A stretch of 64,000 bases of DNA from a virus (lineage: Duplodnaviria; Heunggongvirae; Uroviricota; Caudoviricetes). Both the position numbers and the translations under genes were made by a program. This document shows, piece by piece, positions 2,909-63,385 of the stretch. Numbering within the stretch: position 1 is the first letter of the stretch; each line of letters begins with the position of its first letter. The stretch lies in IMG/VR virus record IMGVR_UViG_3300028549_001428; one strand, written 5' to 3'. The notes under the pieces were generated by a model. The model saw nothing but the letters and a program-made list of their open reading frames with translations, was not told where the DNA came from and did no database searches.

Positions 2909-3187
2909 CTATCTCTTTATGATAGAGAGGTCGTTCACGAACATATTGACAGCGGTTTCGATATTATGTGCATCAATTTCACCACCATATTGTATATTTA
3001 TGTTATTCATATCATGAGCATGTACAACATATGTTTTATCACCGAATTCATCTAGTGAATCTTCTTGTTCATATACATGGATATGAATATTGTTATATTC
3101 ACATTCCAGACAGTCTCTGGTGTTTTGATATAGTTGAGAATGTTCTTTGAGTGATTTGTAGTCAGTTACTTTCATTTTAATATCCAA
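2909..3187 (-). CDS. hypothetical protein
   Basis: ORF in a packed co-directional block. Confidence 0.45.
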   Translation of the reverse strand: MDIKMKVTDYKSLKEHSQLYQNTRDCLECEYNNIHIHVYEQEDSLDEFGDKTYVVHAHDMNNINIQYGGEIDAHNIETAVNMFVNDLSIIKR

Positions 3188-3325
3188 TATAAATTATTGC
3201 ATTGTTTAGGTTATCATCCATCCAATATGCACCACACCGTAATCCGATAGCAACACAATTAGGATTCCACATCTCGTAGGTCATATCATATTCGGGGGAG
3301 TCATCGTACCACATTGCATGTATAA

Positions 3326-4156
3326 TCATTGTTTGTTATATAATTCTTTGTTAAACATACCACAAGAGGAACCCACATCACGACCAGGTGGGTTATAGAA
3401 TTCAACTGTGTTTGATGGGAATAATGTTCTGATATATTCTTCAGATAACTTTGTATTTGTATATCCATTGGTTTCACTTAGCGTAAGGAATTTAACTGTA
3501 CTTCCATCAGCTTTTATCTTGGATTCAAATACTTTTAATTCTTTTACACTGTCATTCACACCATTTACTAATGTGTAATGATATTCGATTGGATTTCCAG
3601 TTGATGTATGGAATTCTTGTAATAATTTAATTGATGTGCGTATACCTATTCCACTCGGCACTATTTTATCACGATTGGATATACCATGTACCGACAAGTG
3701 AACTTTGATGTTAAAGTTCATGTGGTTTAATGTCCACTTAGTTAGATATTCCATTGCATTCATATTTGGCATCATAGTGGAGATACCGAATCGTATACGA
3801 TCATACTTAGCCTGTAGGAGTTCCATAGAGGCTGTTAATTCATTCAGATTAAGCAGAGGTTCACCCACACCCATAAAGCTGATAAGCAATGCTTTATCGG
3901 CTTTGTATTCAATTTGTGCAAGGTAATCAACTACTGATACTATCCAATCTGCTGATAGATTTTTGGATGGTCTATTAGTTCCTGTAAGGTGACAGAATGT
4001 GCATCCCATTTTACAATTTGTTTGAGTAGGTAGGCAAAAAATAAGTTTTGTATCTTTGCGAATGATTGATACTTCATTCTTACCAAATGTTTCATCACTA
4101 ACTATGTATTTGGTTACATCATCTATAGTTGAATCTATTTTTTCAGTTATCCACAT
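3326..4156 (-). CDS. radical SAM enzyme
   Basis: CKMGCTFC (CxxxCxxC) near residue 48, followed by a GVGEPLL glycine-rich SAM motif. Confidence 0.75.
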   Translation of the reverse strand: MWITEKIDSTIDDVTKYIVSDETFGKNEVSIIRKDTKLIFCLPTQTNCKMGCTFCHLTGTNRPSKNLSADWIVSVVDYLAQIEYKADKALLISFMGVGEPLLNLNELTASMELLQAKYDRIRFGISTMMPNMNAMEYLTKWTLNHMNFNIKVHLSVHGISNRDKIVPSGIGIRTSIKLLQEFHTSTGNPIEYHYTLVNGVNDSVKELKVFESKIKADGSTVKFLTLSETNGYTNTKLSEEYIRTLFPSNTVEFYNPPGRDVGSSCGMFNKELYNKQ

Positions 4157-4159
4157 AAA

Positions 4160-4546
4160 TTATTCCTTATTCTTTACAACGAAATATCTAAGACGATTTA
4201 CATATGTAAAATGAACAGTATCACCAATATTATGACCATACACCCAAGCATCATTCAAATTTACATTATGACATCCACCACTACAATCTATATAACTACC
4301 GTCAGAATCAGTTAAGTGATTCCCACATGCTGTAAATGTGAAATGCATATTATTTGCTGTATTTTTGAACAATGCAGTATTACACAACGCAGGTGATGTT
4401 GTTTTTCCTGATTGAATCATAGCATCTTCATTTTGATTAATTTTAACGATGACTGCGGTTACATTGACATCAGTAGATGTACCAATGGTTGTATTTCCAC
4501 ATGCCATGAACATTAATGATAGTATTGTAATTATTAAGTATTTCAT
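4160..4546 (-). CDS. lipoprotein (paralog of 41864..42280 C-terminal module)
   Basis: Lipobox LMFMACG; the C-terminal NDAWVYGHNIGDTVHF module is shared with 41864..42280. Confidence 0.6.
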   Translation of the reverse strand: MKYLIITILSLMFMACGNTTIGTSTDVNVTAVIVKINQNEDAMIQSGKTTSPALCNTALFKNTANNMHFTFTACGNHLTDSDGSYIDCSGGCHNVNLNDAWVYGHNIGDTVHFTYVNRLRYFVVKNKE

Positions 4547-4718
4547 ATTGACTCTTTTTTATTAGGCGGTGAAATTGTGTATAATTGGTTTTAGCCAATG
4601 CCATAGTTTAGGTAGTAACCAAACAGTAGCACCACCAACAGACATTGCAACTACTATTACAAATATAAAAAAATACAACTAATTGTTGTCCGAAATCATC
4701 AAACATAATATATCCTTC

Positions 4719-5102
4719 TTAATTTGTTTCATCTTTTTCATCTGCGATTAATCCATGTTTGCGCAGCTCAGTTCCCCACTCGCTAACCCATCTCTCAATC
4801 TGTCTAAAATCACAGATATGAAATCTGATCCAGTTTTCAGGCAAGGCGTGAGGAAATTCACCATCACTATGAATTACCCATTCAAGGCATCCATTTGGTT
4901 GTGAATTGTTACCTTCAAAATGCATGTGAGTATAATACCCACCTATTTGAAATCCACGATTCATAGCATAGCTAGGACATGTAGTACAGTCTTGCAATCC
5001 TTCATTAGCAATACCTAACTTACAAGGATAATACCATCTAGTATTTTCGGCTGATACACCTTCACCGTGATTTAAACAATCAAAACATTTATTATTTTTC
5101 AT
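4719..5102 (-). CDS. hypothetical Cys-rich protein
   Basis: ORF; no promoter of its own. It begins 1-2 nt after the right-end hairpin of the IsrB element. Confidence 0.5.
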   Translation of the reverse strand: MKNNKCFDCLNHGEGVSAENTRWYYPCKLGIANEGLQDCTTCPSYAMNRGFQIGGYYTHMHFEGNNSQPNGCLEWVIHSDGEFPHALPENWIRFHICDFRQIERWVSEWGTELRKHGLIADEKDETN

Positions 5103-11816: not shown

Positions 11817-13105
11817 TATTCGTGAACTACCCCTGAACTAAAGACTCAGGGGCTTCAAATGACATCGCTGACATTCTTTCTGCACTGGTTGCTAACGCAA
11901 TCCCATGTTTTGCAGACTTGGATTTCTGGGTGTTCCTATCTGACCCAGTATTTTTATTATCAATTGTGACAAACGAGAAATCTCGTATATTGATAGCAGC
12001 ATTAACATCCCTATCGTGGCATTCACCACAATTTGGACATGTCCATGTTCTATCAGACAACTTCAAATCGTGTTTTATGTAACCACATTTAGAACAGGTT
12101 TTTGAGCTTGGTTCAAATCTACCAATAGTTAGTATGTTACTTCCATACCATTCGCTTTTGTAGCGAAATTGTTGGAACAACATTCCCCAACCTGCATCTT
12201 GTATGTGTTTAGATAACTTACGATTTTTCATCATTTCTTTAACATTCAGGTCTTCAATGCAGATAGTTTGGTTCTCACGTATCAGTCGTGTTGAGACTTT
12301 ATGAATGAAATCTTTTCTTTGATTAGCTACACGTTCGTGTAGCAACTGTAATTTTAATTTTTGTTTCTCTGCGTTCTTAGATAATACATCACCTTTATTT
12401 TTCGATTTGATTTTTCTCGAAAATGAACGCTGAATACTAGCTAGTCTACGCTGACATGTAACAAAATGTCTTGGATTCTTTATTTCTTCACCATCACTTG
12501 TAACAATGAATGACTTTATACCTACATCAATACCAATAGCAGTTTCTTTATTGATCTCTGGCTTACTTGGTAACTCCGTTCCATCTTCTACGAGAATGGT
12601 TACGAAGTAACGACCAGCATTAGAACGCTTGATATGGCAAGTACGAATTTCACCTATGAATTGACGATGAAATACAGTCTTTATCGGTTCATTGAACTTC
12701 GGTAATTCGATGATACCTATATCGAAATTAACCGTTAGGTTTTTGGGAACCTCAAATGATTGTTTGGACTTACGATTCTTGAACTTAGGGAATCCACCCG
12801 ACTTAGCGAAGAACTTATTGTATGCGGTATCTAAGTGGATAAGCACAGCCTGTAGTGATTGTGAATTTACTTCTTTCAACCACTCAGTAGATTCCTGTTT
12901 CTTCAACTTCGGTAGATCGGCTTGTATATCATATCTAGATAATGTACCACTTGTCTGTTTGTAATGTGAAATCTTACGAGAAAGAGCATAGTTGTACATC
13001 CATCGACAATGACCAAAGTGCTTTGATAAAAGCGACTTCTGTTCATCGGTTGGATATATTCTGTATTCGTATGTCTTTTTCATCTCTACTATACAATATA
13101 GATTA
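11817..13105 (-). mobile_element. IS200/IS605-family tnpB-only element (family A, copy 1)
   Basis: TnpB ORF plus a right-end hairpin cccctgagtctttagttcagggg inside the last codons, followed by the conserved GGGTAGTTCAC end. The CCCCT-hairpin left end is not recognisable in this copy. Confidence 0.6.
11827..13083 (-). CDS. tnpB: TnpB (IS605 OrfB) RNA-guided nuclease, family A
   Basis: Has the YEYRIYPT N-terminus, RuvC-I GIDVGIKSF, RuvC-II CIEDLNV, zinc finger CSKCG...CPNCG, and RuvC-III HDRDVNAAINI. Length 418 aa. Confidence 0.9.
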   Translation of the reverse strand: MKKTYEYRIYPTDEQKSLLSKHFGHCRWMYNYALSRKISHYKQTSGTLSRYDIQADLPKLKKQESTEWLKEVNSQSLQAVLIHLDTAYNKFFAKSGGFPKFKNRKSKQSFEVPKNLTVNFDIGIIELPKFNEPIKTVFHRQFIGEIRTCHIKRSNAGRYFVTILVEDGTELPSKPEINKETAIGIDVGIKSFIVTSDGEEIKNPRHFVTCQRRLASIQRSFSRKIKSKNKGDVLSKNAEKQKLKLQLLHERVANQRKDFIHKVSTRLIRENQTICIEDLNVKEMMKNRKLSKHIQDAGWGMLFQQFRYKSEWYGSNILTIGRFEPSSKTCSKCGYIKHDLKLSDRTWTCPNCGECHDRDVNAAINIRDFSFVTIDNKNTGSDRNTQKSKSAKHGIALATSAERMSAMSFEAPESLVQG

Positions 13106-15067: not shown

Positions 15068-16472
15068 GTGTATCAATTACCTTTTTAACTGATTTCGTGA
15101 GAGAAATCCCCTAAATCTTTAGTTTAGGGGATGAATCGAACAATACAAATATACAAAAATCTAAGAAAAAATAAAAATATTTCTTAGATTATATAAACTA
15201 ATACTATGAAACGGACTTATGAGTATAGGATATATCCACGTTCTGACCAGAAAGTGCTTCTATCGAAGCATTTTGGTAGTGTTCGTTGGATGTATAATTA
15301 TGCATTGGGACGTAAGATAGAACATTACAAACAGACAAGTAAGACACTTTCTAGATATGAAATACAGGCAGAAATACCAGCAATGAAGAAAACTGAATCA
15401 ACGGCTTGGTTGAAAGAAGTGAATTCCCAGTCATTACAGGCTGTTTTGTTGAACATAGAAACTGCATATACAAAGTTCTTCAGTAAATCGGGAGGATTCC
15501 CGAAATTTAAGAACAAGAAATCAAAACAGTCATTTGAAATACCTACTAATCTAGAAGTTGATTTCGATAGTGGAACTATCGAAATCCCGAAGTTCAAGGA
15601 ACCAATCAGGACTGTATTTCATCGCAAGTTTGTAGGTGAAATACGAACCTGTCATATCAAGCGTTCCGCTTCTGGTAAATATTATGTCACTATTCTAGTG
15701 GATGATGGTAAGGAATTACCAGTAAAACCAGAGATAACAAAAGAAACTGCTATTGGTATTGATGTAGGTATCAAGTCATTTATCGTCACCAGTGAAGGTG
15801 AAGAAATATCTAATCCAAGACACTTTGTTACATGCCAGCGTAGGCTGGTATCTGTTCAACGTTCATTTTCGAGAAAAATCAAATCGAAGAAGAAAGGTGA
15901 TCCTTTATCACTAAACGCTGAAAAAGTAAAATTGAAACTGCAATTGCTCCATGAGCAAGTTGCTAACCAACGTAAAGATTTCATTCATAAAGTCTCAACT
16001 CGACTGATACGTGAGAACCAAACTATCTGTATTGAAGACCTGAATGTTAAAGGAATGCTCAAGAACCGTAAGTTATCTAAACACATCCAAGATGCTGGAT
16101 GGGGAATGTTATTCCAACAACTTCGCTATAAAAGCGAATGGTATGGAACTAATATCCTAACCATAGGCAGGTTCGAGCCTAGCTCGAAAACCTGCTCTAA
16201 ATGTGGTTACATAAAACACGATCTTATATTGAAAGATAGAACCTGGACTTGTCCGATTTGTGGTGAATGCCACGATAGAGATGTCAACGCTTCTATCAAC
16301 ATTAGAGATTTCTCTTTTGTCACTATTGATAATAAAAATACTGGGTCAATTAGGAACACCCAGAAATTAAAGCCTGTAAAATATGGGACTTCGTTAGAAG
16401 CCAGTGCAGGAAAAGCATCCGTGAGGACGCTTGAAGCCCTTGAGTCTTTAGCTCAAGGGTAGTTCACTAATA
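15068..16472 (+). mobile_element. IS200/IS605-family tnpB-only element (family A, copy 2)
   Basis: Left-end block atttcgtgagagaaatcccctaaatctttagtttagggg (about 15085-15133) is shared with copy 7. The right-end hairpin cccttgagtctttagctcaaggg lies inside the last codons, followed by GGGTAGTTCAC. Confidence 0.7.
15206..16462 (+). CDS. tnpB: TnpB (IS605 OrfB) RNA-guided nuclease, family A
   Basis: About 75% aa identity to 11827..13083, with the same motifs; in inverted orientation relative to copy 1. Confidence 0.9.
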   Translation: MKRTYEYRIYPRSDQKVLLSKHFGSVRWMYNYALGRKIEHYKQTSKTLSRYEIQAEIPAMKKTESTAWLKEVNSQSLQAVLLNIETAYTKFFSKSGGFPKFKNKKSKQSFEIPTNLEVDFDSGTIEIPKFKEPIRTVFHRKFVGEIRTCHIKRSASGKYYVTILVDDGKELPVKPEITKETAIGIDVGIKSFIVTSEGEEISNPRHFVTCQRRLVSVQRSFSRKIKSKKKGDPLSLNAEKVKLKLQLLHEQVANQRKDFIHKVSTRLIRENQTICIEDLNVKGMLKNRKLSKHIQDAGWGMLFQQLRYKSEWYGTNILTIGRFEPSSKTCSKCGYIKHDLILKDRTWTCPICGECHDRDVNASINIRDFSFVTIDNKNTGSIRNTQKLKPVKYGTSLEASAGKASVRTLEALESLAQG

Positions 16473-21682: not shown

Positions 21683-22969
21683 TTATAGTTGAAATGCCAA
21701 AGACAATTCAACTTTATTTCTCAGCGAGGCTACAAGAGCCTCGCTGTTCCATCGACCATCAGATGATCTAAGGAACGCTTCATCGACCGAAGTTATGTCA
21801 GAAATTGCTTTCTGACACAGAGCTACAATCTTCACGGACGTAAATTTCCCAGAGGCACTGGGTATTAATTCAAATAAGCCATAGGCTAATATGTTGATTG
21901 ATGCGTTGTGATCTCTATCAATTACACATCCACATTCTTCACATATATACTCTCTTTCATCAAGTCCAATGTGGTGCTTTAACGCACCACATTGAGAACA
22001 TAATTTGGATGAAGGAAAGAACCTATCAGCTTTAAGAACTATAGAACCTGATCGTTTGGATTTATAATCGGTCATTCTGACCAATTCACTCCACGAAGAA
22101 TCAGATATTGAACGAGCCAGCTTGTGGTTTTTAAGCATTCCTCGTATATTCAAATCTTCGAATACAATGATTGCATTTTCATTCACGATTTTTCGTGAAT
22201 ATTTATGTAAATGATCTTTTCGAATATTCGATATTCTAGCATGTTGTTTTGCTAGTTTCATTTTTGTTTTATTTCGTCTGATGCTTCCTTTGGAAGCACG
22301 AGATAATTTCTTTTGTAAGCGTACCAGCTTTTGTTGGTGCTTCTTCAATGGTCTAGGTGACTGCTCCTCATGACCATTACTCTCTACGGCAAATGTCTTT
22401 AATCCTAAATCAATACCTATAATCCCTGATTCGCTTTGGGTTATACCCAACGCATCAGGAATTTCATAATTAACAGAAACATAATATTTACCAGCAGTTC
22501 TAGAAATAGTATATGATAAAATCCTAACATGTTTCTTCTTGAATCTCAAGCCTTCGACTAACTTCACTCGTCCAACCAATGGAAGTTTTATATGATTGTT
22601 AGTGACATGAGCCTTATCATTACTCACATAAAATGAATCCCTACATTTACCTTTCTTCTTCTTTCTTGGAAACTTAAAGTGCGTATTTCCTGTCTTTTTC
22701 CCATTGAAATAATTTTTGAGAGCAATGGATAGATTAGCAAACGGTTGTTGATTTGCGTCCTTTGGACAATCATAAACCCATTTTGGCTTGCATTTATTCC
22801 ATTCTTTCTTCAAATCATTCATTGTCACTTTGGCTACGTCAAGTGACTTCTGTTCTTTCCATTTATTTAATGCCCAATTATAGGCATATCGAGATACACC
22901 AAAAGACTTGTTAAAAACCAACACCTGTTCAGGTGATGGATATAACAATATCTTTTGTCCCATTATCAT
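21683..22969 (-). CDS. tnpB: TnpB RNA-guided nuclease, family B
   Basis: RuvC-I GIDLGLKTF, RuvC-II VFEDLNI, zinc finger CSQCG...CEECG, RuvC-III DRDHNASINI. The GC-rich 3' region contains a cgaggctcttgtagcctcg hairpin. Length 428 aa. Confidence 0.9.
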   Translation of the reverse strand: MIMGQKILLYPSPEQVLVFNKSFGVSRYAYNWALNKWKEQKSLDVAKVTMNDLKKEWNKCKPKWVYDCPKDANQQPFANLSIALKNYFNGKKTGNTHFKFPRKKKKGKCRDSFYVSNDKAHVTNNHIKLPLVGRVKLVEGLRFKKKHVRILSYTISRTAGKYYVSVNYEIPDALGITQSESGIIGIDLGLKTFAVESNGHEEQSPRPLKKHQQKLVRLQKKLSRASKGSIRRNKTKMKLAKQHARISNIRKDHLHKYSRKIVNENAIIVFEDLNIRGMLKNHKLARSISDSSWSELVRMTDYKSKRSGSIVLKADRFFPSSKLCSQCGALKHHIGLDEREYICEECGCVIDRDHNASINILAYGLFELIPSASGKFTSVKIVALCQKAISDITSVDEAFLRSSDGRWNSEALVASLRNKVELSLAFQL

Positions 22970-23986: not shown

Positions 23987-24441
23987 AGTGTTCTCAAGTA
24001 AGTTAAGAAATCAGTGTATAGTGGGAATTTTGTTTTTAATTCCTGTAATAGCTGATCTGCTGTAATTGATAATGTTTTCAATACATATTCAACATATTCA
24101 TTATCATATACTTTCTTTCTGCGTTTGTTGACCTTTTTAATTTCTTCCATTACTTCTTCTAAAGTAAATGGAGTAGTTGCTAAAAAGAATCGCTTGATTT
24201 CAGGATATGATAAATCTTCATAACTACATATTGGGCATGATGTTTCAGGAACTTCATAACTTGATGTATTTGAATCATTATTAATCATGTGACTAGTACA
24301 AAATGTATGATCATTTACACAACGCACCATGTCATAGTCGGTAACGCTATTACCATCCCAACCTATTTCGGTACGATTGCATATTTCACATATGAAACTA
24401 CTGCTAGAACTATTGCTTACAAATCCGTTTCTAATCTTCAT
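23983..24441 (-). CDS. paralog family protein D (MKIRNGFVSNSSSSSFI) with Cys-rich region
   Basis: Conserved 17-aa N-terminus; CEIC...C..C cluster; SD gagg behind a TTTGCTATATT promoter. Confidence 0.55.
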   Translation of the reverse strand: MKIRNGFVSNSSSSSFICEICNRTEIGWDGNSVTDYDMVRCVNDHTFCTSHMINNDSNTSSYEVPETSCPICSYEDLSYPEIKRFFLATTPFTLEEVMEEIKKVNKRRKKVYDNEYVEYVLKTLSITADQLLQELKTKFPLYTDFLTYLRTL

Positions 24442-24460
24442 AAAATCAACCTCGATACAA

Positions 24461-24470
24461 ATATAGCAAA
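24461..24470 (-). promoter_or_regulatory. extended -10 promoter TTTGCTATATT
   Basis: rc of atatagcaaa, 20 nt upstream of the ATG at 24441. Confidence 0.55.
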
Positions 24471-24480
24471 TTATTTGGAT

Positions 24481-25302
24481 TTATATGGTATAAAGTGGAC
24501 AATTTCTATGTCCCTTCAATAAATTTTCACGGAATTGTTTTGTTCGTTCATGGTTCCAGATATCCTTAATAAAATCTTCACATGACAAAACATCCAATCC
24601 TTCTTTACCCCAAGCATCAGTATTAGGACTGAATGAGCATGGATGGAACACACCGAACACATCGATATATGTAGAGAACAGACTGGATTCACATGGTTCA
24701 GCCGACATTTCAAGAACTTTTCTGCGAATAGTGTCAACACCACCCAATGACTTGAGAAACTTCTGTGCACCACAAGAATCAAAGCCAAATGGAATGTTGG
24801 AATTAAGGCATAGGTTAGTTAATTCAGCAAACTCTTCATGAGAAAGCTGTGTAAACCCACGCTTACCTCTTCCCTTTGTCTTTAAAGATAAGAACACAAT
24901 TGCATTTAAATTTTTTAATCTAGGATCAGACTTAATATCAGCAATTGTTTCTAATGCTTGATTAAGAGTTTCTTTTGATATAAGCTGATGTAAATTTATT
25001 TGAGTCATTCCACGATCAGTCAATTTCTTAACTGAATCATAACAAATATCTTTATCTGAGTAACGTGAAATTGCTACTGCTCCACAATACTTAGCTAAGT
25101 TATCGGCAACCTCATCGGAAACATCAGCAACAGTAATGTTTGGGACAATACCTTTTTCACGAGTTGCTTCCATGATCTTCCAGATATCTGGATTCATTGT
25201 ACATGTGCTATCGGCACCTAATGCCACTTGTGTTAATTGGGTTATTTGAGTTTTCGTAATAGTTTTGATTTTCATAATTATTTTCCTTTTGTATAATCGC
25301 AA
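24481..25302 (-). CDS. radical-SAM/SPASM-like protein, C-terminal portion (lacks the Cys triad)
   Basis: Has a TIM-barrel-like stretch (IVPNITVADVSD...AIVFLSLKTKG) and a C-terminal Cys cluster (CGAQ...C.SS...HPCSF...C..C). The true start is probably the internal MKIKT, 2 nt after the HNH gene stop. Confidence 0.4.
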   Translation of the reverse strand: MRLYKRKIIMKIKTITKTQITQLTQVALGADSTCTMNPDIWKIMEATREKGIVPNITVADVSDEVADNLAKYCGAVAISRYSDKDICYDSVKKLTDRGMTQINLHQLISKETLNQALETIADIKSDPRLKNLNAIVFLSLKTKGRGKRGFTQLSHEEFAELTNLCLNSNIPFGFDSCGAQKFLKSLGGVDTIRRKVLEMSAEPCESSLFSTYIDVFGVFHPCSFSPNTDAWGKEGLDVLSCEDFIKDIWNHERTKQFRENLLKGHRNCPLYTI

Positions 25303-26402
25303 ATAAGTTTACACCAATATTTAAGTTCATTCTCGGTCAATGTCTGTTTTAATTTAGTGTTAATGTCACTATGTACCCATTGTATATTATCAATTGTATA
25401 TCCTGTTGATGAATCAATTCTATTTAATGATGCAGTATCTGCTTTATATTTAAATTCTATTGGAAGACCTGTAAGAGCACAGTATCCATTTTGTTCAATA
25501 TATTTATCCCACATATCATTTATAGTGATGTCAAAATTTAAATTTCTCTCACGAGCACCTCGTTGTATTGATTTAAATTTTGTGTTATTTATATTTTTAT
25601 ATCCCTTGAATGCATGATTTTGTTGAAATATATTTGTAGCATTATTTGGGACATTATTGTGAATAGGATTTACTAAGAGATTACATAAATATACAAATCT
25701 TTCTATAGACAAATCCATTTTCATTTTATTTATTGTTTTATGTATCCAGTGAACGTTGCCTTTTGTATATCCTCTAGTTGGATCAATTCTATCTAATGAG
25801 GCAGTTTTAGTGATTCTATCCAAGTGATTTGTATTGAATTCTAATTTAAGTCCACTTAATGTGCATGTGCTATTTTGTAAAATATACTGTTCCCATACAT
25901 CATTTATTGTTACATCAAATTCGAGTCCTCGTTTATTTGCATTACTTTTTATAGAATGAAATATATGAGCCGATAATTCACCACATCCTTTCCACATATA
26001 ATTCTTATTACCTGAATCATATTGATATTTTAAACACCCACATGAACCAGTATGGTTTTTAAGATTCATTATAGAACACGTAAATATATTACCACAAAAA
26101 CATTTAACAGTAACCATACAACTATAACACCCACGCCATTCATGTGGTTTGCTTATTATATCCAAATTCTTTGTTTCTTTTAATGTCTGAATAATGGCTG
26201 ACATTTTGTTATTTCGCTTTATACATCCACATGGGTTGGTATTTGGTAATATCTTACGAAGTGATTTTGTAAATATATTACCACAATAACATTCACATGT
26301 TATTTTATCTCTTTCATTACCGTTCCAATCAGATAATAATTTTATATTTTTAGTTTCATTCAACAGAATACGTAATGAATCTACAGTGGGTATTGATCGC
26401 AT
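25278..26402 (-). CDS. HNH homing-endonuclease-like protein with duplicated zinc-finger + HNH modules
   Basis: Two CxCxC...CGC zinc-finger units and two HNH-like units (SLDRIDPTRGYTKGNVHWIH...N and SLNRIDSSTGYTIDNIQWVH...N). Confidence 0.7.
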   Translation of the reverse strand: MRSIPTVDSLRILLNETKNIKLLSDWNGNERDKITCECYCGNIFTKSLRKILPNTNPCGCIKRNNKMSAIIQTLKETKNLDIISKPHEWRGCYSCMVTVKCFCGNIFTCSIMNLKNHTGSCGCLKYQYDSGNKNYMWKGCGELSAHIFHSIKSNANKRGLEFDVTINDVWEQYILQNSTCTLSGLKLEFNTNHLDRITKTASLDRIDPTRGYTKGNVHWIHKTINKMKMDLSIERFVYLCNLLVNPIHNNVPNNATNIFQQNHAFKGYKNINNTKFKSIQRGARERNLNFDITINDMWDKYIEQNGYCALTGLPIEFKYKADTASLNRIDSSTGYTIDNIQWVHSDINTKLKQTLTENELKYWCKLICDYTKGK

Positions 26403-26404
26403 AA

Positions 26405-26845
26405 TTATATAATCTCATCGGTATCTACCAAATATTTAGCTTTGATTATCCCTCTATTTGTATTTACATCGTCATTTTCATTATATGAAATTTTACTACC
26501 GTTATCTAATTCTATTATAATATAAGTTTGATGTAACTTATCCAAAATTTTTCTATAGGTTTCAATACTCATATTATCACCATTAGGAGAATTTGCTTTA
26601 TAGCACATGGGGCATAATTTTCCTCTAATCCCACTGCACTTGGTAGTGATTTCAATATCAGCAATTTCAGGAAGACCTGCTTGTGGATCATCCTCTTTAG
26701 TTCTTCCCCAACGAGCAAAGAATCCAGACTTCTTATCAAAATCAAAATTGTATGTTTCTGAACGAAGATGCTTCGAGGTTTTTGTTTCGGTCAATGTGAT
26801 TTTTGTCATAATTAAATTCCACTTAGTTTTTGATGTTCTTTGCAA
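26405..26845 (-). CDS. radical-SAM-like N-terminal fragment (Cys cluster CSGIRGKLCPMC)
   Basis: IEITTKCSGIRGKLCPMCY...NMSIETYRKILDKL resembles the radical SAM beta1-loop-alpha1 region, but with Cx7CxxC spacing. Its stop is 2 nt from the HNH start. Confidence 0.35.
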   Translation of the reverse strand: MQRTSKTKWNLIMTKITLTETKTSKHLRSETYNFDFDKKSGFFARWGRTKEDDPQAGLPEIADIEITTKCSGIRGKLCPMCYKANSPNGDNMSIETYRKILDKLHQTYIIIELDNGSKISYNENDDVNTNRGIIKAKYLVDTDEII

Positions 26846-27060
26846 TGATTAAACAAGGCACAATCTTTATTACCGAAGTCTAAAGAATTGCCAAACATAC
26901 AACTATTGTTTGGTTTGTGTAGTTGATGATTTGTTATAGAAAAATCAGGGGAAAAGATCTCAACTACGGGTTGGTCGTGCCATATAAGAACATGAGCATG
27001 AGCATCATATTCATCAAATAATGTCTCTAGTTTTTGTTTAAATTCTTCTCTTTTATCCAC
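26812..27060 (-). CDS. hypothetical protein
   Basis: ORF in a packed block. Confidence 0.35.
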   Translation of the reverse strand: MDKREEFKQKLETLFDEYDAHAHVLIWHDQPVVEIFSPDFSITNHQLHKPNNSCMFGNSLDFGNKDCALFNHCKEHQKLSGI

Positions 27061-36947: not shown

Positions 36948-38270
36948 TTACTGGATACAAGAAATAATATATCGTTTGGATAAATTATTCCGTGAGAAAA
37001 GATTAAAGAACTTTTCACCATTGGGTGAGAAGAGAAATCTATAACTGGATTTAGATTTCTTTGTCCATTCAAATAGAGATTTCCACGAATTAATATTGTT
37101 TGGAATATCAGATAACCTATCCTTCCATTGGAAGGAAATCTGATCAATATTAAATTCAGGGAACACTATAGGTTTGGATGCCATTGATGTATCAATGAAT
37201 ATTTTGTGGAACAGATACGCTCGTCGGCTGAGTTCAATCGAAGCAGCCACAGAATCATAATCATCTGGATTCATTATCTGCCCAATGAAGGAACTATATT
37301 GAGGTACGATTTCCTGAAAGGAAATCGCACTCAAATTACAACGTTTCTTTATGTTACTAACTAGGGCATTTCTAATCCAATAGTTATTAGTTAGCTTATT
37401 GAATTGTTTTCCTTTACGCTTATCAGCAGAAGGTATTGATAGCTTCTCAAATACAACAATCTGACATTGGTAGTGTTTAGCTAGATTAACTATATATTTA
37501 GATGCATTCAAGGTTTCATGCTTTCTTTTATTAGTCTGATATTTGGTATGAGATAGTGCATTGATATCCTTGAAAGAAATTATTTCTTTATGTATAACAG
37601 TTTTATCGCTTTCGGATTTCCAGTCTATGACCGATAATCCAATAAAATTTGGATTCATATCAAATGATAAAATCCTATCTCTAATAACTGTTGGTTGTGC
37701 TATGCACAATACATTTTCATCAAATATAATTGATATCGAATTTAAACTTACATCAAGTGAGAAACAAGCCTTCCCTTCTTCACATAATAGTTGTAATATA
37801 CTCAATTGTGTTTTATGTTTCTTCGATAATCTAGGAAGCTGAATATTAATATGAGTTTCTCTGCTTAACTTCAATATTATAGAATTTGACTCTATAATAT
37901 TTAAGTTAGCTTTCCTATTTCCGTTAGGATCAGATGAAGATCCACGCAGAAACAATGGAATATCCCTATTGGATTTCCACTCATCATGTGTTATCTTTCG
38001 TTTTATACGCTTGATGAAGTTAGCTTTACCTCCAAATATTACATTTGAGTCAACAATACCTTTAGCTTTGTTGACTCCCATATTCATCAAAGATGCATCC
38101 AATAAATCGATGCCTTGCATTCGACTCTTGACTATATGGTACACTTCGCTTAATGTCAAATTAGGATCATCTTGAAACCTGTTATAAGCAAACCTAACAA
38201 CACTGTTAAATTGACGAATATATCCGTCAATTCCAACAATTTTATCCAATCTATACTTATAACTTATCAT
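36948..38270 (-). CDS. TnpB-like RuvC nuclease lacking the CxxC zinc finger
   Basis: YKYRL N-terminus, RuvC-I SFDMNPNFIGLSV, RuvC-II VVFEKLSI, RuvC-III-like DDYDSVAASIE; there are no cysteine pairs between RuvC-II and RuvC-III. Length 440 aa. Confidence 0.65.
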   Translation of the reverse strand: MISYKYRLDKIVGIDGYIRQFNSVVRFAYNRFQDDPNLTLSEVYHIVKSRMQGIDLLDASLMNMGVNKAKGIVDSNVIFGGKANFIKRIKRKITHDEWKSNRDIPLFLRGSSSDPNGNRKANLNIIESNSIILKLSRETHINIQLPRLSKKHKTQLSILQLLCEEGKACFSLDVSLNSISIIFDENVLCIAQPTVIRDRILSFDMNPNFIGLSVIDWKSESDKTVIHKEIISFKDINALSHTKYQTNKRKHETLNASKYIVNLAKHYQCQIVVFEKLSIPSADKRKGKQFNKLTNNYWIRNALVSNIKKRCNLSAISFQEIVPQYSSFIGQIMNPDDYDSVAASIELSRRAYLFHKIFIDTSMASKPIVFPEFNIDQISFQWKDRLSDIPNNINSWKSLFEWTKKSKSSYRFLFSPNGEKFFNLFSRNNLSKRYIISCIQ

Positions 38271-45027: not shown

Positions 45028-46149
45028 ATGATAATGATGAAGACATATAAATACAAGTTGTACAATCGAGATGCTTTGAAGCATCTTGATCGTATAGTTG
45101 ATTTGTCTTCATGGATATATAATCACTGTATAGCTTTACATCGTAGATATTATAGATTGTTCAAGAAACATTTAAATAAGTATCAGTTGCAGAAGCACCT
45201 GACGAAGCTGAAGCGAACTGAAAGGTTCGTTTCATGGAAGGAAGTACCCAGCCAAGCAATACAGGATATAACAGATAGAATAGATCGTTCCTATTTGATG
45301 TTCTATAAGAACATCAAATTGAAGAAGAAAAGCTCACCGCCTCACTTCCAGAAGAAAGTGAATTATCTGAGTTTCACTACGAAACAGGCAGGATTCAAGT
45401 TATTGGAAGGAGACAAGATCCGCATAGCGGATCATGTCTTCCCATACTGGAACTCACGTCCTGTCAATGGAACTATAAAGACTCTAACCGTTAAAAGAAC
45501 TACTCGTGGATATTATATTTATCTAGTGGTAGAGGAAGAAGCAAACATATCGAAGCCAGTTACATCAGGTAAAAGCGTGGGCTTTGATTTTGGTATGAAG
45601 AAATTCCTTGTTGCCTCAGATGGAAATGATGTCACTATGCCATTGTTCCTCAAGAAGTCACTGAAAAAGTTGCGCCTTTTGACGCAAAAGTTTAGTAAAT
45701 CTAGAGGAAAGTTTGGCTCACGTAAGTCACTGTCCAAACTACATGAAAAGGTTTCAAATCAACGAAATGATATGCATTGGAAGTTAGCCCATAGGCTGAC
45801 TTCCACCTATGATTTTATTATATTTGAAACTCTTGATCTTCTTGGTATGTATAAAGCTTGTCAGAAGAAAATCATGGACTTCGGATTCGCCTCATTCTTA
45901 TCCATTCTCGAATATGTTGCGAAACAAAAAGGAAAAATAGTCCACTACGTGGATAAATATTTCCCTTCTTCACAACTATGTTTCGATTGTGGATACCAAA
46001 ATGCAGAAATTAAAGATACTAAAATTCGTGAATGGATATGTCCTCAATGTGGTTCTGTTCATGATAGAGATCAGAACGCTGCTAATAACATTGAAAGAGA
46101 AGGGACTTCTTCTCTAAATACTTGCGCCACTGGCGTAATATGTATTTGA
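45028..46149 (+). CDS. tnpB: TnpB RNA-guided nuclease, family C
   Basis: YKYKLYN N-terminus, RuvC-I VGFDFGMKKF, RuvC-II IIFETLDL, zinc finger CFDCG...CPQCG, RuvC-III HDRDQNAANNI. Length 373 aa. Confidence 0.85.
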   Translation: MIMMKTYKYKLYNRDALKHLDRIVDLSSWIYNHCIALHRRYYRLFKKHLNKYQLQKHLTKLKRTERFVSWKEVPSQAIQDITDRIDRSYLMFYKNIKLKKKSSPPHFQKKVNYLSFTTKQAGFKLLEGDKIRIADHVFPYWNSRPVNGTIKTLTVKRTTRGYYIYLVVEEEANISKPVTSGKSVGFDFGMKKFLVASDGNDVTMPLFLKKSLKKLRLLTQKFSKSRGKFGSRKSLSKLHEKVSNQRNDMHWKLAHRLTSTYDFIIFETLDLLGMYKACQKKIMDFGFASFLSILEYVAKQKGKIVHYVDKYFPSSQLCFDCGYQNAEIKDTKIREWICPQCGSVHDRDQNAANNIEREGTSSLNTCATGVICI

Positions 46150-47482: not shown

Positions 47483-48769
47483 ATGTTAATGGGTCAGAAG
47501 ATATTGTTGTATCTATCGCCTGAACAGGCGTTGGTTTTTAACAAGTCTTTTGGCGTATCCCGATATGCCTATAACTGGGCATTAAGTAAATGGAAAGAAC
47601 ATAAATCACTTGGCGTAGCCAAAGTGACAATGAATGATTTGAAGAAAGAATGGAATAAATGTAAGCCAGAATGGGTTTATGATTGTCCAAAGGACGCTAA
47701 TCAACAACCATTTGCTGATTTATCCACTGCATTAAAGAATTATTTTACATCAAAGAAAGCGGGGAATAAGCATTTTAAGTTTCCAAGAAAGAAGAAACGA
47801 GGAAAATGTAAAGATTCTTTCTATGTGAGTAACGATAAGGCTCATATAACTAACAATCATATTAAATTGCCTTTAATTGGTAAAGTGAAGTTAGCCGAAG
47901 GCTTGAGATTCAAGAAGAAACATGTTAGGATTTTATCATATACTATTTCTAGAACTGCTGGTAAATATTATGTTTCTGTTAATTATGAAATTCCTGATGC
48001 GTTGGGTGTAACCCAAAGCGGATCAGGAATAGTAGGAATAGATTTAGGATTAAAGACATTTGCCGTAGAGAGTAATGGACATGAGGAGCAATCACCTAGA
48101 CCATTGAAGAAGCACCAACAAAAGCTGGTACGCTTACAAAAGAAATTATCTCGTGCTTCCAAGGGAAGCATCAGACGAACTAAAACGAAAATGAAACTAG
48201 CAAAACAACATGCTAGGATTTCAAATATTCGAAAAGATCATTTGCATAAATATTCACGAAAGATCGTGAACGAAAATGCAATTATTGTTTTCGAAGATTT
48301 GAATATACGAGGAATGCTTAAAAACCACAAGCTGGCTCGTTCAATATCTGATTCTTCTTGGAGTGAATTGGTCAGAATGACCGATTACAAATCCAAACGA
48401 TCAGGTTCTATAGTCTTAAAAGCTGATAGGTTCTTTCCTTCATCTAAATTATGTTCACAATGTGGTGCGTTAAAGCACCACATTGGACTTGATGAAAGAG
48501 AGTATATATGTGAACAATGCGGATGTGTGATTGATCGAGATCACAATGCATCAATCAACATTCTAGCCTATGGCTTATTTCAATTAATACCCAGTGCCTC
48601 TGGGAAATTTACGTCCGTGAAGATTGTAGCTCTGTGTCAGAAAGCAATTTCTGACATAACTTCGGTCGATGAAGCGTTCCTTAGATCATCTGATGGTCGA
48701 TGGAACAGCGAGGCTCTTGTAGCCTCGTTGAGAAATCAAGTTGTTTTGTCATTGACAGAACTTCCATAA
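47483..48769 (+). CDS. tnpB: TnpB RNA-guided nuclease, family B
   Basis: About 93% aa identity to 21683..22969, in inverted orientation; all RuvC and zinc-finger motifs are intact. Confidence 0.9.
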   Translation: MLMGQKILLYLSPEQALVFNKSFGVSRYAYNWALSKWKEHKSLGVAKVTMNDLKKEWNKCKPEWVYDCPKDANQQPFADLSTALKNYFTSKKAGNKHFKFPRKKKRGKCKDSFYVSNDKAHITNNHIKLPLIGKVKLAEGLRFKKKHVRILSYTISRTAGKYYVSVNYEIPDALGVTQSGSGIVGIDLGLKTFAVESNGHEEQSPRPLKKHQQKLVRLQKKLSRASKGSIRRTKTKMKLAKQHARISNIRKDHLHKYSRKIVNENAIIVFEDLNIRGMLKNHKLARSISDSSWSELVRMTDYKSKRSGSIVLKADRFFPSSKLCSQCGALKHHIGLDEREYICEQCGCVIDRDHNASINILAYGLFQLIPSASGKFTSVKIVALCQKAISDITSVDEAFLRSSDGRWNSEALVASLRNQVVLSLTELP

Positions 48770-51501: not shown

Positions 51502-52151
51502 TAATATCTATAACCGAAGCCTGTAAAATCCTCGATGTAAGCAAGGATACCATGAGACGTTGGGATAAAAATGAAACATTCAAACCAACGAAAACCGAAG
51601 GTAAGCATCGTAAGTATCTTCTGTCCGAAGTGTACAAGAAAGCTGGTATCGTTACTGATGTAGATGGTACTCCAATCAGCGTAGTAAGCGATACAGATGT
51701 TGCTGTGTATTGCAGAGTGTCATCACATGACCAGAAGCAGAAAGGCGACCTAGAGCGTCAGAAAGCCCGTGTAATGCAACACTGCGTTGATAAGGGATAT
51801 AAGATCATTGAAACATTTGATGAAACTGGGTCTGGTATGAATGATAACAGACCGAAGTTACATAAAATGATTCAACTCGCTATCAGCGGTAAAGTGAAGA
51901 AAATCATAGTTGAACACTCTGATCGTCTTACCAGATTCAATTATAAGTTGATTGAACTATTGTTCACCAGTCATGGTGTCAAGGTTGAATGCATAGAAGA
52001 AGTTCTTGGTAAAACATTCGAGGATGAACTGGTCAAGGACATGCTTACATTGATGGCATCATTCAGTGCCAAGATTTATGGTAAGCGCAGTCACCAGAAC
52101 AGAAAGAAGAAAGATGCGGAAGTTACACCAGAGGTCGTAGCAACCACATGA
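51489..52151 (+). CDS. tnpA: IS607-type serine recombinase with N-terminal MerR-like HTH
   Basis: HTH LISITEACKILDVSKDTMRRWDK; catalytic region VAVYCRVSSHDQKQKGDLERQ...DETGSG...DRLTRF. The likely start is MKDKL; the track ORF begins further upstream. Confidence 0.85.
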   Translation: MKDKLISITEACKILDVSKDTMRRWDKNETFKPTKTEGKHRKYLLSEVYKKAGIVTDVDGTPISVVSDTDVAVYCRVSSHDQKQKGDLERQKARVMQHCVDKGYKIIETFDETGSGMNDNRPKLHKMIQLAISGKVKKIIVEHSDRLTRFNYKLIELLFTSHGVKVECIEEVLGKTFEDELVKDMLTLMASFSAKIYGKRSHQNRKKKDAEVTPEVVATT

Positions 52152-53488
52152 TCCGTATGCGTAGTCACAGGATTGAGTTGAGACTTAATCAGGAACAGAG
52201 AAGCCTTTGCGCCAGAAGCGCAGGTACTTCTCGCTACGCATATAATTGGATGTTAGATAAATTAACTGGTGAGTACGAAGCCAATAAAGCACTCGCTACC
52301 ATGTATGGATTATCCAAGGTTCCATCTACGATGGGAACTGCTATGGACTGGCATAAGGAATGGAACAAGTTAAAGAAAGTTGATGGATTCAACTGGATCT
52401 ATGAAACCAGTAAATGTTGTGGTCAAGAAGCACTTCGTGACCTACAGGTTGCATACAATAAATTATTCAAGAAATTGGGTGGATACCCAAAGAAGAAAAA
52501 GAAAGGTGTGAATGATTCATTCCGTCTTACTGGTGCTATCAGAGTAGGTTATGACTGGGTTCAAATTCCCGGTATCGGTATAGTTAAACTGAAAGAAAAA
52601 GGATATGTAGTTTGTAAGGATGAACAGATTGATCTACCACAAATAACAGTATCTCGTCAGGCAGATCATTGGTTTGTGTCATTCTTATTGCGTGAAGAAG
52701 TAGCGGAAGTAACCAAGGCAACATGGGATGAAATCACCGATGATGAATATGATGTGATCGGTGTCGATCTTGGTATCAAGGATCTGGCTATCACCAGTTA
52801 CGGTGAAACATTTCATAACCCAAGAGCATACAAACAAAAGATTCAACGATTGAAACGCTATCAGCGTTCAGTTAGTAGAAAGAAGAAAGGATCAAATAAC
52901 AAGAAGAAGGCGATATTAAAACTCTCTCGTCTTCATAAGCAGGTTGCTGATATCCGCAATGACGCTACACATAAAATGACTACATCGGTGGTGAAAATCA
53001 AACCGAAGGTGTTAGTTATTGAGAGTTTGAAACCAAAGAACATGAGTAAGAATAGAAAGTTAGCTGGATCGATACTTGATGCTTCCTTCGGGAAGATCAA
53101 AGTACAGTTCCAGTATAAATCAGAATGGAATGGTATTAGATTGGTGATGGCACCAACATTCTATGCATCATCCAAGTTCTGTTCATCATGTGGATATAAG
53201 AAAGAAGATTTAAAACTAGAAGATAGATACTGGGTATGTCCTGTCTGCGGTGAACATCATGATCGTGATGTCAACGCATCCAGAAACCTACGTTTCTTCG
53301 GACTCTGGTTAATGGATTTATTGCCCGTGAGTTCCACGGGTATTGCCTGTTCGATTGATGAATGTCAGTCGAATGCTGTTGGTGACTTGTCACCGAAGTA
53401 TAGAGATGGGAGGTTACAGTTCTTCATTGAACAGTGCCTATCGATGAAGCAGGAATTCAAAAATGCGGAATTTGCACCATGTGCATAG
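52148..53488 (+). CDS. tnpB: TnpB RNA-guided nuclease (IS607-associated)
   Basis: RuvC-I GVDLGIKDLA, RuvC-II VIESLKP, zinc finger CSSCG...CPVCG, RuvC-III HDRDVNASRNL. The GC-rich 3' end contains ggtgacttgtcacc and tgcaccatgtgca hairpins. Length 446 aa. Confidence 0.9.
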   Translation: MIRMRSHRIELRLNQEQRSLCARSAGTSRYAYNWMLDKLTGEYEANKALATMYGLSKVPSTMGTAMDWHKEWNKLKKVDGFNWIYETSKCCGQEALRDLQVAYNKLFKKLGGYPKKKKKGVNDSFRLTGAIRVGYDWVQIPGIGIVKLKEKGYVVCKDEQIDLPQITVSRQADHWFVSFLLREEVAEVTKATWDEITDDEYDVIGVDLGIKDLAITSYGETFHNPRAYKQKIQRLKRYQRSVSRKKKGSNNKKKAILKLSRLHKQVADIRNDATHKMTTSVVKIKPKVLVIESLKPKNMSKNRKLAGSILDASFGKIKVQFQYKSEWNGIRLVMAPTFYASSKFCSSCGYKKEDLKLEDRYWVCPVCGEHHDRDVNASRNLRFFGLWLMDLLPVSSTGIACSIDECQSNAVGDLSPKYRDGRLQFFIEQCLSMKQEFKNAEFAPCA

Positions 53489-61944: not shown

Positions 61945-63385
61945 TCATACCTCAACGGATTTCGTGAGAGGAATCCCCTGAATCTTTAGTTCGGGGAGTA
62001 ATCGAGAAAATTATTTCACCAAAATGAAAAAATAATTAATTAGTTGAACAAAAAATAGTATATATTATAGATATGAGAATACAGATAATCACATCGAAGC
62101 TGAAATTGCTTCATACAAAAGAGCAATCCGATAGACTTGCCTCTTTGTGTCGTGATTATAAGGATGCTTTGAATTTTGCCAGTCAGAAAGCCTTTGAATT
62201 GAAGAAGACGAGTAGTGCTTCTGTGATACAGAAAGCCACATATGAATTGATTCGAGAGAAGTGGAATGGCATTCCATCCACAATGGTTTGTGGAATTGCC
62301 AAACAAGTTGGATCAACTTACAAAACCCTGTGGACGAGAGCCAAACAACACAAATCTCATAGAGCAAAGGGATGGACTAAGAAGCGATATAAGGGACTGG
62401 ACAAAGCACCGAAATTCGGTGCTTTGACATCAACATTATATTATGGTAAAGATTTCTCATGGTCTAAAGACCAAACATTGTCCGTAGCCACTCTTGGTGG
62501 TAGAATCAAATTGGGTTATTCTGGATGGAATAAACATCTTGAATATATTAAATCAGGAGCACGATGTGGAGCATCCAAACTCTGGTATGATAAAACATCT
62601 AAGCAATGGTATCTTTTAGTTTCTATCGAGATAGAAAAACAAGATATAGATCCAAGTAAAATAGGTATCGTAAAGGGAGTTGATGTAGGTCAGCGAGAAC
62701 TCGCTGTTTCGTCATCAAACAACAATAAGAGAAAGTTTTTTCACGGTGGAATCGTGAAACAAAAATGCAGAGAGTTCAGTAAAGTAAGAAGTGGTTTACA
62801 AGAAAAAGGCACTCGTAGTGCAAGTAGAGTCTTAACGAGACTCGCAATGCGAGAGAGACGGTTTAGAACAGATGTAAATCACAAGATCAGTCATGGATTG
62901 ATGGAATCAAATATCATCATCGGTATGGAAGATTTGAAAGATATAAAAGTGAGAACCATGTCACGCAGAAAGCGTGGAAAGTTCGCATCAGATAAACAAC
63001 GACAAGCCAACAAAGAATCAAGCTCTTGGAGCTACGGTGAATTACAAGCATTCGTTGGGTATAAAGTGTTCTTTCATGATTCTCTGATGTTGAAAATTGA
63101 TCCTCATTATACATCCAAAATGTGTAATAAATGTGGACATGTCTCGGATAATAATAGACCCAATGGGTCATTGATTTTTCGATGCGAAGCATGTCATCAT
63201 ACTATCCATTCTGATCTGAATGCAGGTAATAATATAAAAGATAAAACAATTGTGATGCGACATGATCTCATCACAATGGGGCAATTGTCTTCTGTCCCTG
63301 AAGTGTCTAACGATGATCGCTGTGAAACAGCAGGAGTTATGATACAAATCCCCGAATCTTTGATTCAGGGGTAGTTGGCTTAGTG
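61945..63385 (+). mobile_element. IS200/IS605-family tnpB-only element (family A-like, copy 7)
   Basis: Left-end block atttcgtgagaggaatcccctgaatctttagttcgggga is shared with copy 2. The right-end hairpin ccccgaatctttgattcagggg lies in the last codons, followed by GTAGTT. Confidence 0.7.
62073..63374 (+). CDS. tnpB: TnpB RNA-guided nuclease, family A-like
   Basis: RuvC-I GVDVGQRELA, RuvC-II GMEDLKD, zinc finger CNKCG...CEACH, RuvC-III HSDLNAGNNI; C-terminal IPESLIQG as in family A. Length 433 aa. Confidence 0.9.
   Translation: MRIQIITSKLKLLHTKEQSDRLASLCRDYKDALNFASQKAFELKKTSSASVIQKATYELIREKWNGIPSTMVCGIAKQVGSTYKTLWTRAKQHKSHRAKGWTKKRYKGLDKAPKFGALTSTLYYGKDFSWSKDQTLSVATLGGRIKLGYSGWNKHLEYIKSGARCGASKLWYDKTSKQWYLLVSIEIEKQDIDPSKIGIVKGVDVGQRELAVSSSNNNKRKFFHGGIVKQKCREFSKVRSGLQEKGTRSASRVLTRLAMRERRFRTDVNHKISHGLMESNIIIGMEDLKDIKVRTMSRRKRGKFASDKQRQANKESSSWSYGELQAFVGYKVFFHDSLMLKIDPHYTSKMCNKCGHVSDNNRPNGSLIFRCEACHHTIHSDLNAGNNIKDKTIVMRHDLITMGQLSSVPEVSNDDRCETAGVMIQIPESLIQG

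Follow-up and report, generated by a model that had tools for sequence, protein, structure and literature searches.

To our knowledge, genes that were broken by mobile endonucleases and nevertheless remain functional are rare, and the ribonucleotide reductase of phage Aeh1 is the only one that has been dissected biochemically. Its "gene in pieces" nrdA-a / mobE / nrdA-b was reportedly described by Friedrich et al. in 2007. The present work deals with a radical S-adenosylmethionine (SAM) gene found in pieces in the IMG/VR virus record IMGVR_UViG_3300028549_001428, a stretch of 64,000 nucleotides (nt) from a member of the Caudoviricetes, referred to below at its full length as the window. A first-pass annotation had proposed that positions 24481-26845 hold such a gene, split around an endonuclease gene. 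For Aeh1 it was established experimentally that the separate halves NrdA-a and NrdA-b reassemble non-covalently and that activity requires the junction tails (Crona et al. 2011, PMC3045599). The same authors speculated that these tails are degenerate remnants of a split intein; mobE itself resides between nrdA and nrdB in most T-even phages (PMC3045599). Endonuclease-fractured genes and fractured genes carrying split inteins are thus already known. The first contact between the fragments of a split intein is made by an anionic region of the N-terminal fragment (IntN) and the cationic C-terminal fragment (IntC) (PMC11766414).

The locus in the window is quite probably a radical SAM gene split by a cassette, whose two polypeptides would reassemble non-covalently with the aid of junction peptides derived from an intein. 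A mobile cassette with a free-standing endonuclease has recombined into a giant-phage gene for a radical SAM enzyme of the twitch/SPASM type, between codons T95 and V96. The cassette provides the stop codon of the upstream part as well as the ribosome-binding site and ATG of the downstream part. Two products would result, one of 134 amino acids with the Cys triad and one of 264 amino acids with the remaining barrel and the auxiliary-cluster domain, and these most likely come together non-covalently as a single active enzyme whose active site is composite. The tail at the end of the first product and the leader at the start of the second most likely go back to a split intein, of which they would be the inner, endonuclease-adjacent ends without any of its splicing residues. 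In their present role they probably help the halves to find and hold each other by charge complementarity and beta-strand pairing, by analogy with the Aeh1 NrdA-a/MobE/NrdA-b system.

Three tightly packed open reading frames (ORFs) on the minus strand fill positions 24481-26845, as the ORF listing confirms (Table 1). All three are real, and the limits first assigned to them need revision at two places: the TTG starts at 26845 and 25302 give way to ATG 26809 (134 amino acids, MTKITL...) and ATG 25275 (264 amino acids, MKIKTI...). These ATG codons coincide with the N-terminus of uninterrupted relatives and agree with independent gene calls on the source metagenome contig (134/374/264 amino acids). 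With these starts, the reported spacing of 2 nt from stop to next start is found at both junctions, which read TAA-TT-ATG (TAATTATG). The three genes occupy three different frames.

Table 1. Features of the split radical SAM locus in the window.
Feature	Position	Strand	Description
N-part gene	26405..26809	-	134 amino acids + stop; radical SAM residues 1-95, then 39-residue tail
C58-x7-C66-x2-C69 motif	26603..26638	-	presumed radical SAM [4Fe-4S] cluster site, read from the sequence
39-residue acidic tail YIIIELDNGSKISYNENDDVNTNRGIIKAKYLVDTDEII	26408..26524	-	net charge -4; end of the N-part; resembles the C-terminal part of a split-intein N-fragment
Free-standing endonuclease gene	25278..26402	-	374 amino acids; putative homing endonuclease; PHROG matches
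Two Cys-rich repeats	26031..26342	-	residues 21-62 and 79-124; CxCxCGNIF...CGC; presumed zinc-binding DNA-recognition modules
Two tandem nuclease modules	25293..25982	-	residues 141-246 and 268-370; motif SL(D/N)RID..GY..N.xW.H..IN.K
Shine-Dalgarno-like AAGGAAA for the C-part	25282..25288	-	within the 3' end of the endonuclease gene; from consensus only
C-part gene	24481..25275	-	264 amino acids + stop; 13-residue leader + radical SAM residues 96-346
13-residue basic leader MKIKTITKTQITQ	25237..25275	-	net charge +3; start of the C-part; resembles the IntC start of the sister allele, MKIVKISKRNIT
Imported mosaic tract	24903..26630		1323-nt cassette (25236-26558) + ~105 nt and ~335 nt of flanking enzyme-coding DNA
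Intact L007-type presumed target sequence			...CCTAAGACAGTAACCCAGATTGCATTTGGTGCC...

The outer ORFs correspond colinearly to the two halves of a single radical SAM family, as had been proposed, and PHROG profiles, tblastn and uninterrupted relatives agree on this. On the 384-position profile of PHROG 7293 the N-part covers positions 13-106 (E=3.6e-29) and the C-part positions 104-362 (E=1.9e-73); because both parts match this one profile colinearly, chance is excluded. In tblastn both halves map, a few codons apart, to one 389-amino-acid gene present in ~170 T4-like phages (RB43, KP27 and GAP161 types), where it is mostly annotated as radical SAM protein. The comparisons of junctions, breakpoints and substitution rates given below draw on split alleles and uninterrupted contigs from metagenomes, in which L-numbers designate contigs and P-numbers proteins. 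The metagenomic relatives include 346-residue proteins that are not interrupted and reach at most 78% amino acid identity (P0001); the C-part taken alone is 91% identical to P0001 residues 96-345. Contig L007, which carries P0001, aligns to the window at a DNA identity of 84-88% both before and after a 1323-nt insert (window 26558-25236), which takes the place of about 35 nt of L007. The break falls exactly between T95 and V96, where the enzyme has neither lost nor duplicated a residue. In the structural model of P0001 this position is in the surface loop between helix alpha1 (82-91) and strand beta2 (98-102). N-part residues 1-95 correspond to the N-terminal beta domain, beta1, the Fe-S cluster loop and helix alpha1, while C-part residues 96-346 correspond to barrel strands beta2-beta6 and a Cys-bearing twitch/SPASM-like domain. 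The split therefore puts the Fe-S/SAM cluster loop on the small polypeptide, and the rest of the barrel together with four invariant C-terminal Cys on the large one.

The identity of the enzyme was addressed by profiles and by fold. The unusual spacing of the Cys triad reported for the N-part is confirmed as C-x7-C-x2-C (TKCSGIRGKLCPMC). Across 116 homologues C58 and C69 are invariant and C66 is conserved in at least 90%, so the CX7CX2C spacing is a trait of the family; a 40%-identical relative (L022) shows the canonical CX3CX2C at this site. Profile searches of the halves, separate and rejoined, were mixed in outcome: PHROG 7293 was recovered, SPASM stayed below cut-off, and Pfam Radical_SAM (PF04055) matched neither half, nor the rejoined sequence, nor the GAP161 orthologue. 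Among 120 relatives, a precomputed PF04055 match is on record for just 2. The rejoined junction is spanned, over residues 52-128, by a weak alignment to an NCBIfam radical SAM maturase profile (E=1.8e-5) that scores far below the cut-off. The AlphaFold2 model of the uninterrupted P0001, built from the 116 homologues, reached a predicted local distance difference test (pLDDT) score of 96 and has BlsE, EpeE, DesII, BtrN, PqqE and HydE as best PDB matches (E 8.5e-8 to about 1e-5; Foldseek against BlsE E=8.5e-8, template modelling score 0.61). The fold predicted by this model, which is that of the 78%-identical uninterrupted protein and not of the split protein itself, is the partial (beta/alpha)6 triosephosphate isomerase (TIM) barrel.

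The C-part had been described as SPASM-like and devoid of a Cys triad of its own. The absence of a triad is correct; the SPASM label is below threshold in Pfam (E=0.0045, 17.7 versus 21.5 bits), and the GAP161 orthologue passes it (PF13186, 24.5 bits). Only four Cys are invariant in the C-terminal region (C250, C277, C295 and C341) and the CX2CX5CX3C block is absent in the subfamily, for which reason the sequence of this domain looks more like a twitch than a seven-Cys SPASM domain. The protein resembles the twitch/SPASM enzymes (BlsE, EpeE, BtrN, PqqE and the anSME class) in the fold of its relative, in the Cys triad after beta1 and in a C-terminal Cys-bearing domain with SPASM profile matches. 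It differs from them by CX7CX2C in place of CX3CX2C, by the lack of a Pfam Radical_SAM match and by having four invariant C-terminal Cys.

The product of the middle ORF is a putative homing endonuclease that PHROG profiles class as HNH/EndoVII-like. It matches PHROG 3322 "endonuclease" (E=1.7e-43), PHROG 1035 "endonuclease VII" (E=3.5e-28), PHROG 3118 "HNH endonuclease" (E=5.1e-27) and also PHROG 3377 "HNH endonuclease"; the five best of nine PHROG families match it in two stretches each. Its relatives in cultured phages are annotated as HNH endonuclease or endonuclease. The earlier description as a tandem zinc-finger/HNH gene holds for its architecture, made of two Cys-rich repeats followed by two nuclease modules, and for the endonuclease assignment by PHROG, whereas the HNH class has no backing from Pfam, NCBIfam or PDB. 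The Cys-rich repeats recur in relatives from L014, L020 and L022. The two nuclease modules are 44% identical to each other, and single-module relatives are ordinary free-standing endonuclease genes in other phages (L013, L014). Comparison by hhalign with a Pfam-verified HNH_3-AP2 protein was not significant. In the second module (25400-25480, residues ~309-335) the window has SLNRID where L003, L020 and L022 have SLDRID, so one of the two active sites may be altered in the window copy. In L022 a double-module endonuclease (40% identical) stands free, 107 nt downstream of an uninterrupted homologue of the radical SAM gene. Separate HNH_3-AP2 homing endonuclease genes are also found a few kb from the radical SAM gene in L001 (10866-11390; T4-like phages) and in L010 (2607-3137; a 209-kb relative).

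The layout expected of a free-standing homing endonuclease that splits its host gene, suggested in the first-pass annotation, is borne out by the colinear halves, the alignment of the insert and the PHROG endonuclease matches. The DNA around the insert carries a further trace of its arrival. Away from the break the window and the uninterrupted L007 share about 95% DNA identity, and this falls to 59-80% in ~105 nt before and ~335 nt after the insert. The best mosaic breakpoints lie at ~26630 and ~24903 (Fisher p=8e-10 and 3e-7). On the C-side the proportion of synonymous differences (pS) to L007 is 0.52 proximal and 0.23 distal to the insert; on the N-side it is saturated proximally and 0.21 distally. 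Because the excess divergence is also synonymous, the flanks have a different ancestry from the rest of the gene. Judged from these sequences, the pattern is as expected when an endonuclease cassette is copied in with flanking donor DNA, leaving a homing or recombination mosaic.

The split arrangement is maintained. The layout of 135/373-379/261-264 amino acids recurs in full in the contig coding P0122-P0131-P0048 and in L020, and is seen in part in L003, L006 and L016. Between split alleles the ratio of non-synonymous to synonymous substitution rates (dN/dS) was estimated for each segment: N-part 0.08, tail 0.12, endonuclease 0.21 and C-part 0.06-0.16, with synonymous sites near saturation. 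Purifying selection thus acts on both parts, the endonuclease and the tail, which speaks against decay into a pseudogene.

The same gene was broken in other ways in related phages. In L015, whose backbone is about 95% identical to the window, a split intein with an endonuclease is inserted before Cys69, the third cluster ligand (2960-5022). The order is N-extein, a 93-residue IntN (CSPAGT...TPDH...), an HNH-AP2-like ORF, a 35-residue IntC ending in VHN, then Cys and the C-extein. A third break is found near residue 168 (L017 4001-6318, L018 4001-5407, L019 2125-3531). There the N-part of 179 amino acids has a short basic tail, and the C-part of 224-231 amino acids begins with a ~55-residue leader. 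In L017 the halves are separated by a classical, Pfam-verified HNH gene and a 110-amino-acid ORF; in L018 and L019 the spacing is just about 150-170 nt and no endonuclease is present, a state that fits step III of the model of Dassa et al. 2009 (PMC2677866). Selfish elements evidently have a hotspot in the radical SAM gene, which tolerates production in two pieces. From a full-text literature search, no publication on a split intein in a phage radical SAM gene was evident by title or abstract.

A feature missed in the first-pass annotation is that each half carries an extra junction peptide that is absent from the uninterrupted genes. The acidic tail and the basic leader are conserved in all four split alleles seen, with charges kept at -4/-5 in the tail and at +3 to +5 in the leader; 23 of 44 columns are invariant in the tail alignment of three alleles. 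This polarity, acidic on the N side and basic on the C side, is that of the first contact between split-intein fragments. Sequence comparison points in the same direction. The tail aligns with the last ~40 residues (about 49-87 of 93) of the L015 IntN (hhalign P=2.3e-4; none of 300 column shuffles reaches the score), and leader residues 1-12 align with residues 1-12 of the 35-residue L015 IntC (P=1.4e-5; one shuffle in 300 reaches the score). When the tail profile was searched against the whole PDB, the sole match at E<=10 was the NrdJ-1 split intein at residues 89-105, the end of its N-fragment (E=0.42). A profile of tail plus leader raised the NrdJ-1 match from 13.6 to 15.7 bits (E=0.11) and extended it across the split point to residue 113. 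Designed pentatricopeptide repeat proteins also appeared in the search with tail plus leader; their low E values are spurious sums over 8-10 repeats worth about 2 bits apiece, and these matches were set aside. The possibility that the tail is a degenerate duplicate of the downstream enzyme segment was rejected, with only 2 of 18 identities in a hand count on the tblastn extension.

None of the splicing motifs of an intein is found in these peptides. Block A and the Cys/Ser1 nucleophile are absent from the tail, which starts with Y/F/V and lacks counterparts of the first ~50 IntN residues. The TxxH of block B is absent too, the aligned positions being NEND in all alleles versus TPDH in the L015 intein. 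On the other side the His-Asn end of IntC and the Cys/Ser/Thr at +1 are missing; the window leader ends in ...TQ and is followed by Leu. On balance the sequences favour a derivation of tail and leader from the endonuclease-flanking segments of a split intein, because the signals, each weak, all share the same, correct register. The intein-like origin could have come about by a cassette that moved with partial intein flanks or by decay in place of an intein at T95/V96, both being possibilities. A bolder proposal, put forward tentatively and with less conviction than the ancestry itself, is that tail and leader are a "half intein": the first-contact segments without the splicing chemistry, selected as a non-covalent clamp that rebuilds the radical SAM enzyme. 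If this were true, the three alleles (intact, with split intein, and tail-type) would line up as a natural series linking protein-splicing elements and assembly tails, by decay or origin.

Several points weigh against the reassembly of a cassette-split enzyme through intein-derived peptides. The association of the halves, the activity of the enzyme and the role of the tail are inferred, and the support that purifying selection lends to them is indirect. The intein resemblance consists of short, weak matches, as the P and E values above convey, and an exhaustive HMMER search of the 42-residue tail against 1.84 billion representative proteins recovered only its own family (P0122) and no full-length intein donor. 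A structure model of the joined halves, made without an alignment, had a pLDDT of 42.6 and is unusable. The class of the nuclease is putative, PHROG profiles being its sole source: Pfam, NCBIfam and PDB sequence searches of the middle ORF, including one with a profile of the nuclease module, gave no meaningful match, and the motif LDRID...N..W.H..IN has no obvious first His of an HNH site. Finally, no second copy of the enzyme is present within the 64-kb window; an intact copy is possible elsewhere in the ~366-kb genome.

The alternative that survives best, although we consider it unlikely, accepts that the halves function and sees in tail and leader passenger stop and start sequence with neither a role in assembly nor intein ancestry, their resemblance being a chance effect among beta-strand-rich peptides. 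It is consistent with the weakness of each intein match taken alone and with the lack of a full intein that has a closely similar end. It also finds a parallel in Aeh1, whose tails are dispensable for heterodimer formation and needed only for higher-order assembly (PMC3045599). Passenger sequence would however not be expected to be constrained like the enzyme, as the tail is from its dN/dS at saturated synonymous sites and from its proportion of invariant columns, nor to keep opposite charges in all alleles. Moreover, three independent comparisons fall in the correct register at the intein split point, and column shuffles reached the observed score in 0 of 300 cases for the tail and in 1 of 300 for the leader.

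That the split copy is a disabled, decaying gene killed by insertion of the endonuclease is very improbable. It is conceivable that the phage can dispense with the enzyme. Decay is contradicted by the intact frames, start signals and all family-invariant Cys kept in at least five diverged lineages of split alleles, by the low dN/dS of the enzyme parts (0.06-0.16) with near-saturated synonymous sites, and by the persistence of a different split in L018 and L019 even without an endonuclease.

Still less credit is due to the idea that the halves are joined by protein trans-splicing, with tail and leader acting as a minimal, atypical split intein. The fragments are intein-like, a true split intein exists in the same family (L015), and the layout is like that of "fractured genes" (Dassa et al. 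2009, PMC2677866). The peptides nevertheless have no block A, Cys/Ser1, block F/G or terminal His-Asn, TxxH is replaced by NEND in all alleles, and the residue after the leader is Leu or Val across alleles. Tail and leader together span 52 residues, against 128 (93 + 35) in the functional split intein of L015. With no splicing residue left, the peptides are not expected to splice.

The least probable of the alternatives is that the insert represents a group I (or II) intron with the endonuclease ORF inside it, removed by RNA splicing to restore the frame. Many phage HNH endonucleases are intron-encoded, and since the halves are in different frames, expression of the C-part needs either RNA splicing or separate translation. 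The intron fails because Rfam detects no intron family at E<=10 with lax filters in 24300-27000 on both strands, because the 1323-nt insert is wholly coding (its ORFs are 2 nt apart here and overlap in L020), because the tail is constrained as protein, because the ATG of the C-part is conserved in all alleles and preceded in the window by a Shine-Dalgarno-like motif, and because RNA folds of the junctions are no more stable than shuffles (z-scores -0.6 to +1.0). A contiguous intein is ruled out by the stop codons and 2-nt frame shifts at each junction. With intron and protein splicing failing these tests, separate translation and non-covalent reassembly remain.

Transcription signals and neighbouring genes add the following context. 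No terminator was found on the minus strand within the three-gene block; the promoter and terminator scans were otherwise uninformative. Directly downstream of the C-part gene lies an array of paralogues on the minus strand (24441-23983, 23986-23501, 23493-23038 and 21638-21228), coding for proteins of 136-161 amino acids each that start with a near-invariant MK.R(N/H)GFVSNSSSSSF(I/V) and continue with a variable body (PHROG 7397). One to eight such genes adjoin every related locus that reaches past the radical SAM gene (L006-L010, L015, L017, L018, L020 and L022), including that of the CX3CX2C relative. Their products are candidate substrates or partners of the radical SAM enzyme, as suggested by this gene neighbourhood. 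The array is interrupted by a TnpB-like ORF (21683-22969) whose N-terminus is nearly identical to that of another one at 47483-48769. The 64 kb contain at least eight TnpB/OrfB_IS605-like ORFs: 11827-13083(-), 15206-16462(+), 21683-22969(-), 36948-38270(-), 45028-46149(+), 47483-48769(+), 52148-53488(+) and 62073-63374(+). The one checked with Pfam matched OrfB_IS605 (E=1.2e-22) and a Cas12f1-like TNB domain.

No near-identical DNA was found in cultured phages. A protein identical to the endonuclease (P0128, 25278-26402) is recorded on a contig of 365,647 nt, which makes a jumbo phage the probable source of the window. The best matches in deposited phages come from uncultured "huge phage" records, 485 and 735 kb in size.

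What the locus adds to the known cases is a radical SAM host enzyme, tails with detectable split-intein ancestry and no splicing residues, and the occurrence of intact, split-intein and tail-type alleles on nearly identical backbones. The gene-in-pieces organization would be extended to a radical SAM enzyme whose Fe-S/SAM site and substrate/auxiliary-cluster part would sit on different polypeptides. The locus also offers sequence-level evidence for the origin of assembly tails. Because four states of the gene coexist in closely related phages (intact, fractured by a split intein, fractured with tails, and fractured without endonuclease), the relation between homing endonucleases, split inteins and genes in pieces becomes directly testable. 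A pair of short acidic and basic peptides that rejoins a split enzyme without splicing chemistry could serve as a protein-engineering tag.

The organization found here can be set against three known systems. It shares with the "fractured genes" (Dassa et al. 2009, PMC2677866) the order N-part/endonuclease/C-part, the stop and start borne by the element, and the occurrence in phages; the L015 allele is a canonical example of them. The window allele departs from that group in retaining only 39 + 13 endonuclease-adjacent residues and in missing the splicing residues. Furthermore, the endonuclease there is Vsr-like and not of the window's family, and radical SAM is not among the eight host enzyme types. 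The phage T4 topoisomerase gp39 / mobA / gp60 (PMC3045599) is similar in that a Mob-type endonuclease splits an enzyme gene whose halves have tail-like extensions, and dissimilar in that the enzyme is another one and no intein similarity is reported.

The Aeh1 nrdA gene differs from the window in coding for a ribonucleotide reductase instead of a radical SAM/twitch-SPASM protein. Its charge polarity is reversed relative to that seen here, where an acidic N-part tail and a basic C-part leader are arranged as in split inteins. The link to inteins was only speculated for Aeh1, whereas similarity to split inteins is detectable here; assembly and activity, conversely, were demonstrated for Aeh1 and are proposed for the radical SAM enzyme. 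The two loci have in common a free-standing endonuclease gene, HNH-type in Aeh1 and putatively so here, that sits within a large phage's conserved enzyme gene, a break between secondary-structure elements of the active-site barrel, and halves that are translated separately, or would be in the window, with the active-site residues divided between them. In both, each half ends at the junction with a unique, oppositely charged tail that is absent from uninterrupted orthologues. The parallel extends to the unbroken state, the free-standing endonuclease beside the intact homologue in L022 being the counterpart of mobE beside the intact nrdA in T-even phages.

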